Assembly: GCA_013334575.1 (NCBI GenBank)
Contig: JAAXXG010000004.1
Span: 18,464 to 82,463 of the forward strand
Length of the DNA: 64,000 bases
Reading direction: 5' to 3'
Source of the DNA: Candidatus Moraniibacteriota bacterium
Lineage (GTDB): Bacteria; Patescibacteriota; Minisyncoccia; Moranbacterales; UBA1568
A program made the translations under genes and the position numbers. Every line of letters starts with the position of its first letter. The stretch's first letter is position 1. Below, piece by piece: positions 3,462-60,832 of the stretch. The notes beneath the pieces were generated by a model that had not been told where the DNA came from, did no database searches, and was given only the letters and a program-made list of their open reading frames with translations.

Positions 3462-4001
3462 TTATCCTTTCGTTTCCGTCCTTGTCTTCCCGAATGCTAC
3501 GGGCCGTTTTCCGGCAGCCGCCCCGACGACGTGCCGTTCCTCGTCGGACAAGGGATATTCCTTCGTTTCGGAGCCCTTTTCGACCGGTTTCGCGTACACG
3601 CGCGTCCCTTCGCGCGTATGGATCGACGATATGACGAATCCGGTATTCTTCCCGTCGAGGAGTGCGACCGCGAAGCTTTGGTTTCCCCCGACCTCCTTGA
3701 AGGGGTTGAATCGGAGGAGTCCGGTCTTGTGTATGCTTTCCTGGCCGAGCCGGTACAGCTGTTCGGCGATACCGTAGAGCTTTCGGATCTCTTCGTCGGC
3801 CGCGTCGAGTCCTTCCTTCTGCTTCAGGATGATCTCTTCGAGGTCGACTCCGGTCTTGCCGGAGAAGAGTGCGGTCAGGTCTTTACGGAGCTTTCGGACA
3901 CGAAAGAAGAGAAGGACGGAAACGAGCAGTCCGAGGCTGCCGATGCCGATGCTGGCCAGGGTCAGCGGTACGATTACCGATGCGGAAAACAGTCCTTCCA
4001 T
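3462..4001 (-). CDS. DUF4446 family membrane-anchored protein
   Basis: 179 aa. N-terminal TM helix. Hallmark block LLRFNPFKEVGGNQSFAVALLDGKNTGFVISSIHTREGTRVYAKPV matches the DUF4446 consensus (RYNAF-DVGG-QSF-ALLD-GNG-V-SS--R-SR-YAK). Confidence 0.7.
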   Translation of the reverse strand: MEGLFSASVIVPLTLASIGIGSLGLLVSVLLFFRVRKLRKDLTALFSGKTGVDLEEIILKQKEGLDAADEEIRKLYGIAEQLYRLGQESIHKTGLLRFNPFKEVGGNQSFAVALLDGKNTGFVISSIHTREGTRVYAKPVEKGSETKEYPLSDEERHVVGAAAGKRPVAFGKTRTETKG

Positions 4002-10599: not shown

Positions 10600-10686
10600 A
10601 GGAAAGGGAGGGATTCGAACCCTCGAGGCCCTTGCGGGCCTGCCGCTTTTCGAGAGCGGTACCTTCAACCACTCGGTCACCTTTCC
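10600..10686 (-). tRNA. tRNA-Ser (anticodon CGA)
   Basis: On the minus strand: GGAAAGG/CCTTTCC 7-bp acceptor stem. D-arm ACC-GAGTGGTTGAA-GGT. Anticodon stem CCGCT/AGCGG with loop CTCGAAA (CGA). Long variable arm. T-arm AGGG-TTCGAAT-CCCT. Confidence 0.85.
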
Positions 10687-10740
10687 TATATGTCTAACAG
10701 TATATACTATTGTTCGAAATGATCCTCCCATTTCCGGTCA

Positions 10741-10854
10741 GGGATTCGCCCCGCATGCGCGGGGCGCCCGGCGAATGCCCGGGCGAACCCTCGAGGCCCT
10801 TGCGGGCCTGCCGCTTTTCGAGAGCGGTACCTTCAACCACTCGGTCACCTTTCC
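10741..10854 (-). repeat. tRNA-Ser-derived partial copy with a 38-nt two-hairpin insertion in the T-loop
   Basis: 71 nt identical to the 5' part of tRNA-Ser up to GGGTTCG. Then an insert (CCCGGGCATTCGCCGGGCG + CGCCCCGCGCATGCGGGGCG). Then AATCCC. The sequence after that does not restore the acceptor stem. Confidence 0.7.
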
Positions 10855-10869
10855 TATATTCAACTGACA

Positions 10870-26090: not shown

Positions 26091-26196
26091 CCGGGATGTC
26101 CGTAGACTGGACGAGAAGCGGCTCGATATATCGAAGGATGGATTTTTTCGGAAGCGGCGTCCGGACTTTCGTAGGGAGCCCTTTGTCGAAGTTTAT

Positions 26197-26225
26197 CGGG
26201 ACAGGGTATAGTGGTAGTACGTCTG
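26197..26225 (+). repeat. partial duplicate of the 5' end (acceptor, D-arm and start of anticodon stem) of tRNA-Pro
   Basis: cgggacagggtatagtggtagtacgtctg versus tRNA cgggacatagtatagtggtagtacgtctg. Confidence 0.6.
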
Positions 26226-26360: not shown

Positions 26361-26426
26361 AGATAGTCCCGGTCCGCCCGAGCATTCGCCGGGCGTCCGG
26401 CGTATGCCGGACGATTCCGTGTATCC
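26361..26426 (+). repeat. tRNA-Pro-derived fragment (anticodon-stem 3' side to T-loop) interrupted by a two-hairpin insertion
   Basis: AGATAGTCCCGGTCCG, then CCCGAGCATTCGCCGGGCG, then TCCGGCGTATGCCGGACG, then ATTCCG. The first hairpin element is the near-exact reverse-strand equivalent of the insert at the tRNA-Ser locus. Confidence 0.6.
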
Positions 26427-26432
26427 TGACAA

Positions 26433-27227
26433 GTGCCCGAATCGATAATGACGGATAAGGGAATAAGAATAAAATCTATGGATTTCCTGCCGATTTCGTT
26501 GTTGAAGGTCGAGACGGTCGCCGACCGCACGAAGGCGTTCTTCTTCACGAAGCCGGATGGATTCTCGTTCCGCGCGGGGCAGTATGTGATGATCCGGATC
26601 CCGTCGGAGCGACTTGTCGAGCCGGATGTCCGTTCCGGAATGCGTCCGATATCGATCGCGTCGGCACCCGGTGATCGCGAACTGACGTTCGTCATGCGGG
26701 CGGGATCGACCGGATTCAAGAAGACGATGTGGAACCTGGTGCCGGGCGAGACGATAGGAGTCGGTGGGCCGCTCGGGAACGCGACCGTTCCGGATGAAGA
26801 GAGCCGTCCGATCGCGATACTGTGCGGTGGCGTAGGAATCGCGCCGGCACGCTCGATGATTCGCGATGCGGTTTCGAAAGGGGATCGGCGGAAGTTCGTG
26901 TTGTTCTCCTCGAATCGGACCCTTCGGGATGTTCCCTGCCACGAAGAGCTGCTCTCGACGGATCTTCCGGGATATTCGTATGTCTGGACGTTGACGAAAG
27001 CCGAGAATGAGCCGTCTCAAAAGGGTGAGGAACGCGGATACATTACGGCGGAGATGATCGAACGACACTTGCCAGAATGGCGGGAAGCACTCTATTATGT
27101 CATCGGTGCGCCGGCATTCGCCGATTCGATGAAGTCCGTTCTGCTCGGGATGGGCGTTGTGCCGGAAAATGTGCATATGGATCCGTTCGCGGGGCTTACC
27201 GGTTCGGGATCGAAGAATGTCGCGTAA
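26433..27227 (+). CDS. FNR-like oxidoreductase with FAD-binding FR-type and NAD(P)-binding domains
   Basis: RAGQYVMIRIP...RPISIASAP (FAD-binding), GGPLG, and an NAD-binding Rossmann segment. No ferredoxin cysteine cluster. Likely true start near 26478 (MDFLPISL). Confidence 0.7.
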   Translation: MPESIMTDKGIRIKSMDFLPISLLKVETVADRTKAFFFTKPDGFSFRAGQYVMIRIPSERLVEPDVRSGMRPISIASAPGDRELTFVMRAGSTGFKKTMWNLVPGETIGVGGPLGNATVPDEESRPIAILCGGVGIAPARSMIRDAVSKGDRRKFVLFSSNRTLRDVPCHEELLSTDLPGYSYVWTLTKAENEPSQKGEERGYITAEMIERHLPEWREALYYVIGAPAFADSMKSVLLGMGVVPENVHMDPFAGLTGSGSKNVA

Positions 27228-27247
27228 ACCGCCGGGTTTCGCGGGAA

Positions 27248-27319
27248 GCGGGTGTCGTATAGTGGCTATTATATCAGCCTTCCAAGCTGAGGATGTGGGT
27301 TCGATTCCCATCACCCGCT
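27248..27319 (+). tRNA. tRNA-Gly (anticodon TCC)
   Basis: GCGGGTG/CACCCGC acceptor. Anticodon stem TCAGC/GCTGA with loop CTTCCAA. T-arm GTGGG-TTCGATT-CCCAT. Confidence 0.85.
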
Positions 27320-27591
27320 CAGTGCAGACAAAAGAGGCTCCGTGAAGGAGTCTCTTTTGTCTGTTATGAGGCGATGGGAATCGAACGGGCAGAAGCGAGT
27401 CTCCGAGCGTCGATGAATGCGACCGGATAGGAAGCATTCAGCGCTGCCCCGGGCTACGAGGCACCGTCAGGTGCCGAGGACGAAATTCCCATCACCCGCT
27501 CAGTGCAGACAAAAGAGGCTCCGTGAAGGAGTCTCTTTTGTCTGTTATGAGGCGATGGGAATCGAACGGGCAGAAGCGAGTCTCCGAGCGT
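27304..27591 (+). repeat. tandem direct repeat: two 107-nt copies, each carrying the last 16 nt of tRNA-Gly from the T-loop onward plus 91 nt of flank, separated by a 74-nt hairpin-containing spacer
   Basis: Copies at 27304-27410 and 27485-27591, both beginning ATTCCCATCACCCGCTCA. Each contains a terminator-like hairpin GACAAAAGAGGCTCCGTGAAGGAGTCTCTTTTGTC. The spacer ends with GGCACCGTCAGGTGCC GAGGACGAA. Confidence 0.75.
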
Positions 27592-27752
27592 AGGCTGCGA
27601 GGAGGCTCGAACATCCGGCTCCGTCTCGGACAACGAGGTGCCGTCAGGGCGGTCGAAGACGACATCTTCGTCATTCTTGGAAGCCGAGTGAATGGGAGTC
27701 TGGAATATGGGGAATACCGAATCTATTCTGTCCGTGATATACTGTCCCCGAA

Positions 27753-28322
27753 ATGAACGTACGACGTATGAACAAGGTTTTTCTCGCATTGGGGGCTGTG
27801 GCGTTCGGATTCGCGGTCTGGCTGCTCGTGGGAGCGCCGGGAGGGAGCAAAATAACGGATTCGCGATCGGAGGGCGACGCCGTCGAGGTGAAAACGGACA
27901 AGAGTGCGGGGTCGGGTCGCGACGCGTCGACTGTGTCGCAAGGGAGTCGGAAGGAACCGGTAAGCAGCGATAAGAACAAGACTATGACGGAAGTCACCGA
28001 ACTGAAGATCGAGAAGCTCGCGGACGGGACGGGAGACCGGATGACGAAGAAGGGAGATACGATCTCCGTCCATTACACTGGGACATTGACGGACGGGACG
28101 AAGTTCGATTCGAGTCTCGACCGTGGGACGCCGTTTTCCTTCACGGTCGGAGGGGGACAGGTCATCGCCGGATGGGACCAGGGACTTCTCGATATGAAGG
28201 TCGGTGAGAAGCGTCGGCTTACGATTCCCGCCTCGCTCGGGTACGGATCACGCGGAGCCGGAGGAGTCATCCCGCCGAATGCGACGCTTATCTTTGAGAC
28301 GGAGCTGGTCTCGATCAAATAG
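27753..28322 (+). CDS. FKBP-type peptidyl-prolyl cis-trans isomerase, membrane-anchored/secreted
   Basis: N-terminal hydrophobic segment. FKBP domain ([62 protein letters not shown]). Confidence 0.85.
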
Positions 28323-33354: not shown

Positions 33355-33425
33355 GCGGGTATAGTACAATGGTAGTACACTAGCTTCCCAAGCTAGGGAC
33401 ACGGGTTCGATTCCCGTTACCCGCT
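33355..33425 (+). tRNA. tRNA-Gly (anticodon CCC)
   Basis: GCGGGTA/TACCCGC acceptor. D-arm GTAC-AATGGTA-GTAC. Anticodon stem CTAGC/GCTAG with loop TTCCCAA. T-arm ACGGG-TTCGATT-CCCGT. Confidence 0.85.
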
Positions 33426-35470: not shown

Positions 35471-35675
35471 TCCGAAAGCGGTACGTACATCCGTGCCGCT
35501 TTCAACGTTTTGACGCGCCCTTACGTCGTTCCGGCCCGCCTCTTGTCGTTGATGGCAGTCGGCACTTTACGGCGGTCCGAAAAGGTGCTATACTGTAACT
35601 GTCGTGAAAGACGGGTGTGCCGCGAGTGCGCCCGTCTTTTCCGTTGTCGGGGTAAAAAGTAACAGGAATATCGGT

Positions 35676-37502: not shown

Positions 37503-37527
37503 CGATCGTTTGCGGGAACAGTGAAAG

Positions 37528-37617
37528 CGACCGGGAATATCCCAGTCGCTTTTCTCTTTTCATGGTACGAGTCAGGTTGTTCCCGTCACGAACGCGTTGA
37601 GCGTCGGGAGAGGCGTA
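37528..37617 (+). repeat. terminator hairpin plus trailing sequence, duplicated at 39050-39140
   Basis: GCGACCGGGAATATCCCAGTCGC followed by TTTTCTCTTTTCATGGTACGAGTCAGGTTGTTCCCGTCACGAACGCGTTGA. The second copy is about 85% identical. Confidence 0.6.
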
Positions 37618-38858: not shown

Positions 38859-38879
38859 ACCACATGACAACCGAAAGCG

Positions 38880-38910
38880 GCGCGAGAATCGTGCCGCTTT
38901 CAAAGTTTCT
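38880..38910 (+). terminator. rho-independent terminator-like hairpin after paralog B
   Basis: GAAAGCGGCGCGAGAATCGTGCCGCTTTC. Confidence 0.4.
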
Positions 38911-39049
38911 ATCCTCGTTCTCGATGTTGACTGATGATATTCGGCACGTTTCGTGAAGCTTGAATTGGTTTCTTTTCGTATTCACGACCTTTTCGGGGGA
39001 GTCTAGTTTCGGTGAAAAGACCGTATGCTGTAACCGAAAAGGAAAGGAG

Positions 39050-39140
39050 CGGCTGGGATATTTCCGGTCGCTTTTCTCTTTTCATGGTACGAGTCAGGTT
39101 GTTTCTGTCACGAACCCGTTGAACATCCGGAAGAGGGAAT
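39050..39140 (+). repeat. second copy of the 37528-37617 terminator/tail repeat
   Basis: GGTCGCTTTTCTCTTTTCATGGTACGAGTCAGGTTGTTTCTGTCACGAACCCGTTGA. Confidence 0.6.
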
Positions 39141-40758: not shown

Positions 40759-40830
40759 CGGGAGCCAAACCAAAAACGAAAGCGGGAGAGAAACCACTCC
40801 CGCTTTCAACGTTTCCGGCGATATCCGCAA

Positions 40831-57028: not shown

Positions 57029-58705
57029 ATGAAAATACAGGAAAACAAGTGGCGTGTCAAGGGTCTTCGAAAAGCCCTGTCGGAATTTTCGATGGGATGG
57101 TACGCTTTTCCTATGACCCAGGATCAGGCCCTCTCCATTCTCAGAACCGGTGCGTCGGTCTTCCTTACGGGGGAGGCCGGTTCCGGCAAGACACATGTCG
57201 TGAACCGGTATGCGGCGTACCTGCGTTCCCGCGGGATCCCGTACGCGATGACCGCCTCGACCGGGATCGCGGCGACGCATATCCGCGGTACCACCATCCA
57301 TTCGTGGAGCGGCGTCGGAGCGAACCGTGACATGAGCGACGAAGGGTTCGAGCAGCTTGTGAAGAACCGGAGGGCCGTACGGCGGATCCGTGAGGCCCGC
57401 GTTCTCGTGATCGACGAGGTGTCGATGCTCGACGCCCGGGTCCTCTCGCTCGTGGAGCGGATGTGTCGCCGAGCGAAGGGATCGACGTCGCTTCCCTTCG
57501 GCGGACTGCAGGTCGTGCTCGTCGGCGACTTCTTCCAGCTGCCGCCGGTCTCGCGCGAGGGCGCCTCGCGGTTCGCGTTCGAGTCGTCCGCCTGGGATGC
57601 GCTTCGTCCGGTCGTCTGCTACCTTCACGAGCAGCACCGGCAGGAGGACCCGGCGTTCCTTTCGGTCCTTTCGGCGATCCGCCGCGACGAGGTCGGCGAG
57701 GAACACCTCGCGCTCGTGCGGGGGCGGATTCTTGGGCGGGACGACGTGCCGGACGAGGATCTGCCAGTACTCTTCTCGCATAACGCGGACGTGGACGGTC
57801 TCAACGCCGCGGCACTCGACCGACTGCCCGGCAGGTCGCGCGTCTTCCTCATGGCCAAGCGCGGACCGGACAAGCCGCTCGAAGCGCTCGTGCGCGGGTG
57901 TCTTTCGCCCGAGCGGCTCGAGCTCAAGGAGGGCGCATCGGTCATGTTCACCAAGAACAATCCGGACGAAGGGTACGTGAACGGGACGCTCGGCACCGTC
58001 ATCGGGTTCGATGCGGCGAAGAAGTTTCCGATCGTCCGGACGCGAGACGGCGAGGCAGTGACGGTCGCTCCTGCGGAGTGGTTGGTCGAGGAGGGCGAGG
58101 AGATCGTCGCGCGAGTGCGTCAGATCCCGCTTCGGCTCGCGTGGTCGATCACGATCCACAAGAGTCAGGGTGTCTCGCTCGATGCGGCGGTCATGGACCT
58201 CTCGCGCGTCTTCGAATACGGGCAGGGGTATGTCGCGCTCTCGCGGGTGCGCACGCTTGCCGGGCTCTCGCTCGTCGGACTTTCCGACCGGGCGTTCGCG
58301 ACGCATCCCTCGGTACGCGAGAAGGACCGCCTGTTCCGCGAGGAAAGCGAGCGTGCCGAACGCGCGTACGGTTCGCGAAGCGAGGAGGAGATACGGAAGG
58401 ACGAGGAGGCGTTCCTGGTCCTGTGCGGGGTGTCCGGGAAAAAAGAAGGCGGTCCGCACGGCCGCGCGAAGGGAACCGCGAAGAAGGGAAATGGAAAACG
58501 GAAAGCCGCCGGTGCGGGCGGCGGGTTCGACGAGATACGGAAGAAGCATCCCAAGGCGTATATGCCGTGGAAGGAAGACGAGGACAAATGGCTCCGAAGG
58601 CTTTTCCAAGGCGGCGCCGATGTGAAATCCATCGCCGAAGCGCTCGGCCGACAGCCGGGGAGTATCCGCGCGCGGATGAGGAAGCTCGGGCTGGAGGGAG
58701 ACTGA
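57029..58705 (+). CDS. Pif1-like SF1B DNA helicase with C-terminal HTH-like tail
   Basis: Walker A FLTGEAGSGKTH. VLVIDEVSML. GDFFQLPPV. Motif V-VI AWSITIHKSQGVSLD...YVALSRVR. C-terminal KWLRRLFQGGADVKSIAEALGRQPGSIRARMRKLGLEGD. Possible internal start at 57092. Confidence 0.85.
   Translation: MKIQENKWRVKGLRKALSEFSMGWYAFPMTQDQALSILRTGASVFLTGEAGSGKTHVVNRYAAYLRSRGIPYAMTASTGIAATHIRGTTIHSWSGVGANRDMSDEGFEQLVKNRRAVRRIREARVLVIDEVSMLDARVLSLVERMCRRAKGSTSLPFGGLQVVLVGDFFQLPPVSREGASRFAFESSAWDALRPVVCYLHEQHRQEDPAFLSVLSAIRRDEVGEEHLALVRGRILGRDDVPDEDLPVLFSHNADVDGLNAAALDRLPGRSRVFLMAKRGPDKPLEALVRGCLSPERLELKEGASVMFTKNNPDEGYVNGTLGTVIGFDAAKKFPIVRTRDGEAVTVAPAEWLVEEGEEIVARVRQIPLRLAWSITIHKSQGVSLDAAVMDLSRVFEYGQGYVALSRVRTLAGLSLVGLSDRAFATHPSVREKDRLFREESERAERAYGSRSEEEIRKDEEAFLVLCGVSGKKEGGPHGRAKGTAKKGNGKRKAAGAGGGFDEIRKKHPKAYMPWKEDEDKWLRRLFQGGADVKSIAEALGRQPGSIRARMRKLGLEGD
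58642..58694 (+). repeat. repeat R1 (palindrome-cored), in frame as the 3' end of the helicase gene
   Basis: gctcggccgacagccggggagTATCCGCGCGCGGATGaggaagctcgggctgg. Confidence 0.7.
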
Positions 58706-59639: not shown

Positions 59640-59665
59640 AACATGCATGGTGCATCACAAAGACC

Positions 59666-59755
59666 CTCGGCCGTCAGCCCGGAAGCATCCGCGCGCGGAT
59701 GAGGAAGCTCGGGCTGGCATGAAGAAAGAGGCTCTCGCGAGAAGAGCCTCTTTTT
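59666..59755 (+). repeat. repeat R2 (palindrome core CATCCGCGCGCGGATG) fused to a terminator hairpin
   Basis: ctcggccgtcagcccggaagCATCCGCGCGCGGATGaggaagctcgggctggcatgaagaaag, then GAGGCTCTCGCGAGAAGAGCCTC followed by TTTTTT. Confidence 0.7.
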
Positions 59756-60729: not shown

Positions 60730-60758
60730 TCACACCGCTGTCCTTAGTCGCTGACCCA

Positions 60759-60832
60759 GGAGCATCCGCGCACGGATGAGGAAGCTCGGGCTGGAATGAA
60801 GAAAGGGATCCTCTTGGAGAATCCCTTCTTTC
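60759..60832 (+). repeat. repeat R3 (CATCCGCGCACGGATG) fused to a terminator hairpin, in the dapB upstream region
   Basis: ggagCATCCGCGCACGGATGaggaagctcgggctggaatgaagaaag, then GGATCCTCTTGGAGAATCCC followed by TTCTTTC. Confidence 0.7.

Follow-up and report, generated by a model that had tools for sequence, protein, structure and literature searches.

The window analysed here is a stretch of 64,000 nucleotides (nt) from a Candidatus Moraniibacteriota bacterium (contig JAAXXG010000004.1), and this text concerns the region that follows its gene for the glycine transfer RNA (tRNA) with the anticodon TCC, tRNA-Gly(TCC). The tRNA gene is intact, and its neighbours include genes for RNase Y and for an FNR-like reductase, the best named homologues of which stem from Candidatus Moranbacteria of the candidate phyla radiation (CPR)/Patescibacteria. 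Judged from its sequence, the region downstream of tRNA-Gly(UCC) is a non-coding array of two copies of a small cassette, which we call E. A repeat search of the locus and of the whole window yielded a direct repeat of 2 x 107 nt (27304-27410 and 27485-27591) with 100% identity, a start-to-start distance of 181 nt and a spacer of 74 nt (27411-27484), which confirms a claim of an earlier, sequence-only reading of this DNA. Chance cannot account for an exact repeat of this length. By counting, the first base of both copies is A58 of the T loop, and each copy comprises 18 nt of the tRNA 3' part and 89 nt of flank, instead of the 91 nt of flank given in that reading. The terminator-like hairpin that it had described in each copy is present (hairpin B, GACAAAAGAGGCTCC-GTGAA-GGAGTCTCTTTTGTC, at 27327-27361 and 27508-27542), and the spacer ends, as described, in a GC hairpin plus GAGGACGAA (27460-27484). 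A strict scan of 27100-27800 for promoters and terminators detected no sigma-70-like promoter and did not call hairpin B a terminator.

The earlier statement that no element lies between the repeats has to be given up, because the spacer is the 3' half of the core of the first cassette, E1. Spacer and repeat together form a predicted structured, non-coding cassette of about 130 nt, which is conserved. A unit of E begins with the tRNA 3' part from A58 and continues with the terminator-like hairpin, an imperfect inverted copy of the tRNA 3' part (inverted repeat, IR) and a core, which consists of P2, P3, P4 and the tail GAGGNCGAA; it extends to the next tRNA 3' part, which again starts at A58. 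In the folds, IR is able to pair with two partners, either with the tRNA's own 3' part (direct repeat DR0), which results in a long hairpin, or with the downstream direct copy DR1, which results in the closing stem P1. The second cassette, E2, is decayed. It is identical to E1 at 27568-27591, and from 27592 onward the partners of P2 and P3 are lost, P4 is broken and the terminal copy of the tRNA part has degenerated to ATCTTCGTCATTC. Nevertheless, 27592-27675 is recognisable as a diverged relative of the 74-nt spacer by alignment and by nhmmer (E-value = 1e-11).

A consensus fold of four E copies, calculated with RNAalifold, comprises the closing stem (IR with DR), P2, P3 and the hairpin P4, and ten of its pairs exhibit compensatory changes. 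The wobble pairs of this consensus are G-U and lie on the tRNA strand. The 15 pairs of P2 and P3 were also evaluated across 18 E copies from many loci, and 99.6% of the cells were paired, while nine of the 15 pairs had changed on both sides. None of 500 shuffled controls matched this pairing, and with slid partners it fell to 25-43%. The 3' half of E is 76-91% identical between the window and the relatives, whereas the DNA of the adjacent FNR gene is merely 70-71% identical, and the differences in the 3' half are mostly compensatory changes within P4. A search of the E regions against Rfam 15 returned tRNA and chance-level matches alone, with no family reaching an E-value of 1. The E core is a well-supported predicted structured motif that is absent from Rfam. 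A hammerhead-like reading of CUACGAG-hairpin-GAGGACGAAA was considered and rejected: the core spacing does not fit, and no ribozyme or other Rfam family was found at an E-value <= 10, nor at <= 1 on AT-rich copies. A read-through RNA covering 27248-27510 would fold with z = -7.6 compared to shuffled sequences, and in this fold the 5' acceptor strand of the tRNA pairs with DR1, while the tRNA's own 3' part pairs with IR.

Contigs of relatives were collected via the FNR-like reductase; here and below, contigs are given as L001, L002 and so on. The gene order RNase Y, HU, tRNA-Pro, FNR, tRNA-Gly(TCC), FKBP is kept in the relatives. The contig of a near-identical strain, L001 (98%), stops within tRNA-Gly, and an exact look-up of the FKBP protein of the window gave no match and hence no independent assembly of the repeat. 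E cassettes, cassettes with a second core type, F, or both are found behind the orthologous tRNA-Gly(TCC) in L003, L006, L007/L008, L009, L012/L070, L071 and L074, so that the cassette persists at the orthologous locus in relatives with 60-76% FNR identity. In these relatives the tRNA gene is followed by a species-specific hairpin, the inverted tRNA 3' part (GGTGATGGGAATCGAAC), the conserved core and the direct tRNA 3' part. The F core, which lies beside E in several relatives and has inverted and direct tRNA flanks like those of E, consists of the hairpin GGGTATTCTAGAAAG...CTTTCTAGAAACCC followed by CTCCGGAGG...GGGGAGGAGG. The number, order and completeness of the E and F units vary among the relatives (Table 1). 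The site is empty in the more distant outgroup L072/L073, in which the FKBP start codon lies 24 nt past the tRNA. The hairpin that follows the cassette in L007 and L009 is homologous to hairpin B of the window. Directly after the F/E array of a relative with 60% identity (P0023, on a 69-kb contig), about 300 nt downstream of tRNA-Gly(TCC), lies a gene for a Y1 transposase of the IS200/IS605 type (136 amino acids (aa), PF01797). Gene calls at the syntenic tRNA-Gly loci include no integrase, and none of the cassettes contains one; for the other el and E loci, the flanks were left unannotated.

The occurrence of E is not restricted to tRNA-Gly(TCC). A scan of metagenomes with the E-core pattern retrieved 18 loci, about 15 of which are genuine. 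Copies of the 3' type lie downstream of tRNA-Glu (L084, L089), tRNA-Lys (L093) and other tRNAs (L087, L076, L090/91), and their inverted and direct flanking copies match the local tRNA. Their right junction invariably reads ...GAGGCGRA|A58, and in other genomes the right junction of every 3'-type E or F is G57|A58. In copies of the 5' type, E lies between a truncated 5' copy of the tRNA and, downstream, the intact tRNA, as exemplified by tRNA-Gly(GCC) (L079/82, L080), tRNA-Asp (L081/85) and tRNA-Asn (L083). Their left junction lies at or near the T arm, with the exception of L083, where it is in the D loop, and in L079 the duplication extends about 35 nt into the upstream flank. Every cassette next to a tRNA gene has a second copy of part of that tRNA beside it, so that the gene itself always stays intact, and E has the same orientation as the tRNA in all of these cases. 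F has likewise been adapted to another tRNA, namely tRNA-Gly(GCC) in L057, where its flanks are GGGTAACGGGAGTCGAA and ACTCCCGTTACCCGC. Depending on the tRNA next to them (Gly, Glu or Lys), E and F have different flanks, which are therefore derived from the target and not carried by the element. Miniature inverted-repeat transposable elements were rejected as an explanation for the same reason, because their element-specific terminal inverted repeats are constant across copies, whereas the inverted flanks of E and F follow the local tRNA.

The sequence-only reading had also proposed that the boundary at the T-loop position G57|A58 recurs at the tRNA-Ser and tRNA-Pro genes of the window, and this is borne out by the inserts at both genes and by all right junctions of 3'-type E and F. 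The Ser and Pro inserts, which sit at G57|A58, represent an element of 35 nt, el, with two hairpins bracketed by CG (CG-CCCNG GCATTCG CNGGG-CG-NCCNGC GNAT GCNGGN-CG). A scan of genomes retrieved 60 el loci, almost all in metagenome-assembled genomes (MAGs) of Patescibacteria, with several loci per MAG and some at contig ends. Nearly all of the roughly 63 distinct copies lie between the halves of a T loop (GGTTCG...AATCC or its complement); with strict patterns 30 are in sense and 13 in antisense orientation, and most of the others look T-loop-like by eye. More than nine complementary variants of the stem of the second hairpin occur. The site of the window's pseudo-tRNA-Pro is empty in L002, contains el in forward orientation in the window and in L001, and contains it in reverse orientation in L005. 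Upstream of tRNA-Pro a cassette is present in L007, L009 and L012 and absent in L003 and L006. Just upstream of tRNA-Pro(TGG) in the window, at 26191-26221, lies a 31-nt imperfect copy of the 5' end of this gene (tcgggacaGGgtatagtggtagtacgtctgG), which also occurs in L001 (98%).

At 16 loci, el precedes an open reading frame (ORF) of 84 aa on its 5' side, at a distance of a few tens of bases (about 200 at most) and in either relative orientation. The ORF encodes a GIY-YIG domain (Pfam PF01541, 1.2e-17), and among solved structures its product is closest to 1zg2 and 1ywl, both UPF0213 proteins. The ORF-bearing cassettes have the layout truncated tRNA, el, ORF, intact tRNA, and the Ser and Pro units of the window are ORF-less versions. 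The set of cassettes in Patescibacteria thus has at least three core types: E, F, and el with or without the 84-aa GIY-YIG gene. The T-loop-joined cassettes have in common the G57|A58 junction, the duplication of a tRNA part and the vicinity of an intact tRNA. A common origin of E and el via the shared GCATTC, which had been noticed at the outset, was rejected: GCATTCA is the strand of P3 in E that pairs with TGAATGC, GCATTCG is a hairpin loop in el, and an E profile detected nothing at the 60 el loci except where a genuine E is also present at a tRNA-Gly. A pattern search of IMG/VR gave no match for either E or el, and a phage origin was rejected.

Several further observations concern el and its surroundings. 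Three head-to-tail units of 74 nt, each comprising the tRNA 3' part, a 13-nt spacer, GGTTCG and el, are present in L062 (3679-3858), and L019 contains repeats with a 78-nt period (36-250); both arrays are terminal on their contigs, and el units seem to have been amplified locally there. In L013 (35-66) and L027 (135-166) the flanks of el are GTGTTAACCG...GGCTACACCAC, which are not T-loop halves, and therefore el also has a target other than the T loop. Further small GIY-YIG ORFs, which are more divergent (33-44% identity to the ORF linked to el), adjoin tRNA genes in L033 (7100-7330), L065 (3816-4043), L052 (2919-3146) and L055 (2327-2581), and the one in L065 has the hairpin GGTTCGCCGAAGCGAACC ahead of it. 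The tRNA-Gly(CCC) gene at 33355 lacks duplicates in the window, as had been noted; this does not extend to the relative L046, which has a twin-hairpin cassette at that tRNA. A 16-nt palindrome, GTCGCTCGCGAGCGAC, is inserted in two places (L046, about 1327-1342; L074, about 3495-3510), one being the anticodon region of a pseudo-tRNA-Gly(CCC) and the other the interior of an E cassette, and may represent a further family of small palindromic inserts.

Table 1. Cassette features of the window and of related loci (positions in the window unless a contig is named).
Feature	Position	Strand	Evidence or remark
tRNA-Gly(TCC), intact	27248..27320	+	ARAGORN; Rfam tRNA 63.4 bits; G57 = 27303, A58 = 27304
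DR0, the tRNA's own 3' part from A58 (ATTCCCATCACCCGCTCA)	27304..27321	+	starts repeat copy 1
Hairpin B copy 1, terminator-like stem-loop	27327..27361	+	inverted repeat; homologous to post-cassette hairpin in L007/L009
IR, imperfect inverted copy of tRNA 3' part (TGAGGCGATGGGAATCGAAC)	27367..27386	+	inverted-repeat search, consensus fold
E1 core	27387..27484	+	conserved in L003, L006, L007, L009, L012/L070, L074; covariation; no Rfam family
E1 P2	27387-27392 / 27444-27449	+	helix
E1 P3	27414-27420 / 27434-27440	+	helix
E1 P4 hairpin	27460-27465 / 27470-27475	+	GGCACC-GTCA-GGTGCC
E1 tail GAGGACGAA	27476-27484	+	9 nt, abuts DR1
DR1, direct copy of tRNA 3' part from A58	27485..27502	+	starts repeat copy 2
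Hairpin B copy 2	27508..27542	+	within repeat copy 2
IR copy 2	27548..27567	+	within repeat copy 2
E2, second E cassette, decayed	27568..27675	+	alignment to E1; nhmmer match 27551-27675, E-value = 1e-11
el (35 nt + CG) in T loop of truncated upstream tRNA-Ser(CGA) copy	10747..10783	-	sequence
Truncated tRNA-Ser 5'-part copy, 76 nt	10784..10859	-	100% identical to 10616-10691 of intact gene; unit 168 nt
el in T loop of diverged pseudo-tRNA-Pro fragment downstream of tRNA-Pro(TGG)	26377..26413	+	sequence
F core	L003 11081-11194; L070 3456-3570; L071 3533-3642; L057 1438-1550	- (L057)	absent from window
Array, window			E, decayed E
Array, L003			E, F
Array, L006			E, then 3' fragments of F and E
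Array, L012/L070			F, then two E fragments
Array, L071			F, E
Array, L007/L009/L074			single E

As an explanation, we tentatively favour, at somewhat less than an even chance, that these are small selfish cassettes associated with tRNA genes, which spread via nuclease breaks in the T loop and restore the tRNA. Both the cutting enzyme and the copying route are what we infer. A T-arm-directed GIY-YIG nuclease encoded by el cassettes would cut tRNA genes in the T loop and leave 2-nt 3' CG overhangs, and repair of the break, recombinational or microhomology-mediated via the conserved T arm, would copy the cassette in. The survivors would be products that regenerate the tRNA, either as tRNA, cassette and tRNA 3' part, or as tRNA 5' part, cassette and tRNA; we propose that the tRNA parts are duplicated because only tRNA-regenerating outcomes persist. 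E, F and those el cassettes that lack an ORF would depend on mobilisation in trans. IR lies beside the palindromic terminator, and it might have arisen from a fold-back or hairpin intermediate that was resolved within the palindrome, a speculation that fits the sequences.

The details of the junctions can be reconciled with this mechanism. 2-nt 3' overhangs are a typical product of GIY-YIG enzymes. IR ends with ...GGGAATCG(AAC), and in 3'-type E and F the inverted copy ends with ...GGGAAT-CG. This sequence would correspond to the bottom strand at the right-hand end of the break, overhang included, with A58 as the top-strand 5' end of the same break end. The end of IR, the start of DR1 at A58 and the CG..CG around el would thus all fit one break with a 2-nt 3' CG overhang. 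The exact 107-nt repeat would be the youngest event at the locus, either a segmental duplication in the 181-nt register or a gene conversion, in which DR0, hairpin B, IR and the first 24 nt of the E core were copied onto the front of an older, decayed cassette. The prior state would have been an older array of two cassettes, as in the relatives. The identity of E1 and E2 stops sharply at 27592, and therefore a uniform tandem duplication is unlikely as the history of the locus, while the left boundary of the repeat is at A58 because the homology between tRNA and cassette begins there.

Several points weigh against this proposal. The link between E or F and a nuclease is an analogy of architecture alone, and with tblastn neither the 64-kb window nor the retrieved E and F loci yielded a GIY-YIG gene. 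The 84-aa protein consists of the catalytic domain and of nothing that can be recognised as a DNA-binding domain, so that its T-arm specificity is putative, and SegB, a GIY-YIG enzyme of phage T4, itself cuts mainly near the 3' end of the tRNA and not in the T loop (PMC2330249). Insertions of E also occur off the T loop, namely in the D loop of a pseudo-tRNA (L083), after the T stem (L081) and at the apex of palindromes that are not tRNAs (L088, L092). The intact tRNA copy retains the putative target, which leaves immunity unexplained. Simple homing does not explain IR, for which a fold-back or hairpin intermediate would be needed. Finally, the fixed orientation of E and its conservation above that of the coding neighbour are explained equally well by an RNA function for the host.

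This last point belongs to a serious rival, which we regard as unlikely: E (and F) would be host-useful structured RNAs co-transcribed with the tRNA, and the duplications would be ordinary recombination between tRNA parts, which is compatible with a mobile origin. E, if it is made as RNA, could for example be a cis switch, in which IR pairs either with the tRNA's own 3' half, so that maturation is blocked, or with the downstream copy, so that the tRNA is released, or it could be a stable small RNA bearing a tRNA-like 3' end. The covariation of P2 and P3, the G-U wobbles on the tRNA strand and the fold of 27248-27510, in which the tRNA halves are paired to IR and DR1, would all be expected of such an RNA. 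The same is true for the orientation of E, which is that of the adjacent tRNA at every tRNA-adjacent locus, for the core that is better conserved than the neighbouring coding gene and retained across the relatives with 60-76% FNR identity, and for the terminator-like hairpin that the cassette has behind it. However, the promoter scan found no sigma-70-like promoter, a terminator-like hairpin separates the tRNA from E, and the outgroup L072/L073 is entirely without the cassette. Moreover, copy number, order and completeness are variable in close relatives, with many truncated or decayed copies including E2, and the presence of the same core at many unrelated tRNAs and at non-tRNA palindromes, with flanks copied from the target, is typical of insertion. 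Similarly doubtful, in our estimation, is that E and F form a new class of self-acting structured nucleic-acid element, or a cis tRNA switch, with no described counterpart. A small catalytic or protein-recruiting RNA or single-stranded DNA might enter loops, chiefly T loops, and copy the target in inverted and direct orientation by fold-back; as a cis switch, E might decide whether the 3' half of the adjoining tRNA is free or sequestered.

Mobility could also have been provided by other enzymes. It is improbable, but would agree with several features, that E and el are non-autonomous units of the IS200/IS605 type or similar to repetitive extragenic palindromes (REPs), moved by a Y1 HUH transposase, with single-strand insertion 3' of a short target that hairpin loops expose (e.g., TTCG). 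E has a hairpin close to either end (P0 on one side, and on the other P4, which a 9-nt tail separates from the right junction), el is made up of two hairpins and nothing else, the insertions are in the loops of stem-loops (T loop, D loop, other palindromes) with E in a fixed orientation to the target strand, and one relative has the 136-aa PF01797 Y1 gene just after its E/F array. However, this is the sole Y1 gene, at one locus, and el is found in both orientations and is tied to the GIY-YIG gene and not to Y1. In addition, IS200/IS605 insertion does not duplicate the target, whereas duplicated tRNA parts, direct as well as inverted and from 18 to more than 100 nt long, are present here. The sequence-only reading had seen an empty attL/attR scar, which would be the pair of attachment sites of a tyrosine-integrase element that had inserted into the T loop and was reduced to an integrase-less remnant of the kind of a cis-mobilisable element (CIME). 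T-loop integrases yield direct repeats that comprise the tRNA from the T loop to its 3' end, and in accordance with this, direct repeats of the tRNA 3' part flank the insert (DR0 27304-27321, DR1 27485-27502, and likewise in relatives); the post-cassette hairpin of L007 and L009, which is homologous to that of the window, would fit an original terminator displaced downstream. The T-loop boundary and the direct repeats of the scar thus stand; its emptiness does not, and an integrase origin appears highly improbable. No integrase was called at the syntenic tRNA-Gly loci or in any cassette, no long version of the element was seen, and the cassettes examined are too short to hold an integrase gene. 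An inverted tRNA copy is not an attachment-site feature, the core covaries, 5'-type cassettes duplicate the promoter-proximal tRNA part, and sister cassettes carry a nuclease and not a recombinase, the GIY-YIG nuclease being the only enzyme found inside cassettes of this kind. It is hardly credible that the assembly turned one cassette into 1.6 copies by collapse or expansion. Exact repeats can be mis-assembled and el copies are often at the ends of MAG contigs, but 107 nt are shorter than common reads, multi-cassette arrays are present in independent assemblies of relatives, and the two copies continue differently to the right, where the recognisable decayed E at 27592-27675 is impossible to obtain by mis-joining copy 1.

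CPR/Patescibacteria have tiny genomes and minimal tRNA sets. Their tRNA genes are decorated with at least three kinds of small cassettes, which have a spare tRNA part attached where they adjoin a tRNA gene, and these cassettes can mislead tRNA annotation as well as the calling of integration sites (false att sites). If the nuclease model is true, tRNA-directed homing and segmental amplification of the SegB type, which have been described for phages so far, would also take place on bacterial chromosomes, the widespread stand-alone GIY-YIG proteins of the UPF0213 type would obtain a role, and the pseudo-tRNA fragments and contig breaks in CPR assemblies would be explained.

A 65-nt segment ending with ...CATCCGCGCGCGGATGAGGAAGCTCGGGCTGG occurs three times in the window, about 1 kb apart (58630-58694, 59653-59717, 60730-60794; 71-85% identical), and these segments are probably the ends of three paralogous genes. 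A repeat of 84 nt (37526-37609 and 39048-39131) is 85% identical, and a hairpin, CGAAAGCGG...CCGCTTTCAACGTTT, is present in three copies (35473-35510, 38871-38908, 40777-40814). Both recur at a spacing of 1.5-3.4 kb, which hints at a row of paralogous genes that have terminators or upstream regions in common.

Full-text literature searches for T-loop insertions or for GIY-YIG proteins with tRNA in Patescibacteria/CPR retrieved nothing relevant, and the SegB papers alone bear on the subject. The cassette family is seemingly undescribed, although absence from Rfam and from the searchable literature is no proof. E has the size and the covariation of a typical structured RNA motif of Rfam, yet it matches none of the families. 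Non-canonical tRNA introns as well as split and permuted tRNAs of archaea likewise have extra sequence at the D or T loop, with related inserts in different tRNAs. In contrast, the host is here a bacterium, as indicated by RNase Y and the Moranbacteria homologues, and the interrupted copies lack the other half of the tRNA, so that none could yield a tRNA: the Ser copy has no 3' acceptor strand, the Pro fragment no 5' half and the 5'-type E copies no 3' part, while an intact gene lies alongside. An archaeal-type T-loop intron or split tRNA was rejected on these grounds and because el occurs in both orientations, and therefore el is an insert at the level of DNA.

Attachment sites in T loops and CIMEs resemble E in the direct repeats of the tRNA 3' part, and there the tRNA is restored by the copy that the element carries. 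They differ from E, which has an insert of just about 110-180 nt, an inverted tRNA copy, a covarying core and no integrase, and which also exists in 5'-type versions. Miniatures of IS200/IS605 and REPs with their RAYT transposases are, like the cassettes, small, hairpin-rich, multi-copy, ORF-less and linked to stem-loops, and a Y1 gene lies beside one array; here, however, long target segments are duplicated both direct and inverted, and the linked enzyme is a GIY-YIG protein. By analogy, the nearest known system is tRNA-directed homing of the SegB type. SegB of T4 is a GIY-YIG enzyme that recognises the T-arm motif GGTTCRANTCC, which many tRNA genes contain, and produces 2-nt 3' overhangs (PMC2330249), and it drives recombination-dependent tandem segmental amplification of tRNA-containing units (PMC13096335). 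SegB is a longer phage protein, whereas the el-linked ORF encodes a UPF0213-like protein of 84 aa, a putative nuclease known from its sequence, which is chromosomal in CPR, el being absent from IMG/VR. Further differences are that the junction of el-type cassettes with a truncated tRNA copy lies inside the T loop, that these cassettes have a 35-nt twin-hairpin leader, and that the cassettes of the window and the E and F cores are ORF-less, an encoded GIY-YIG protein being found in el-type sister cassettes alone (16 other loci). The free-standing SegB of T4/T6 and the el cassettes nevertheless have in common a GIY-YIG gene among tRNA genes, and the cassettes also exhibit a feature of homing cassettes in general, namely presence/absence polymorphism at the same site, as seen for the E array in comparison with L072/L073, for the el site and for the tRNA-Pro cassette.

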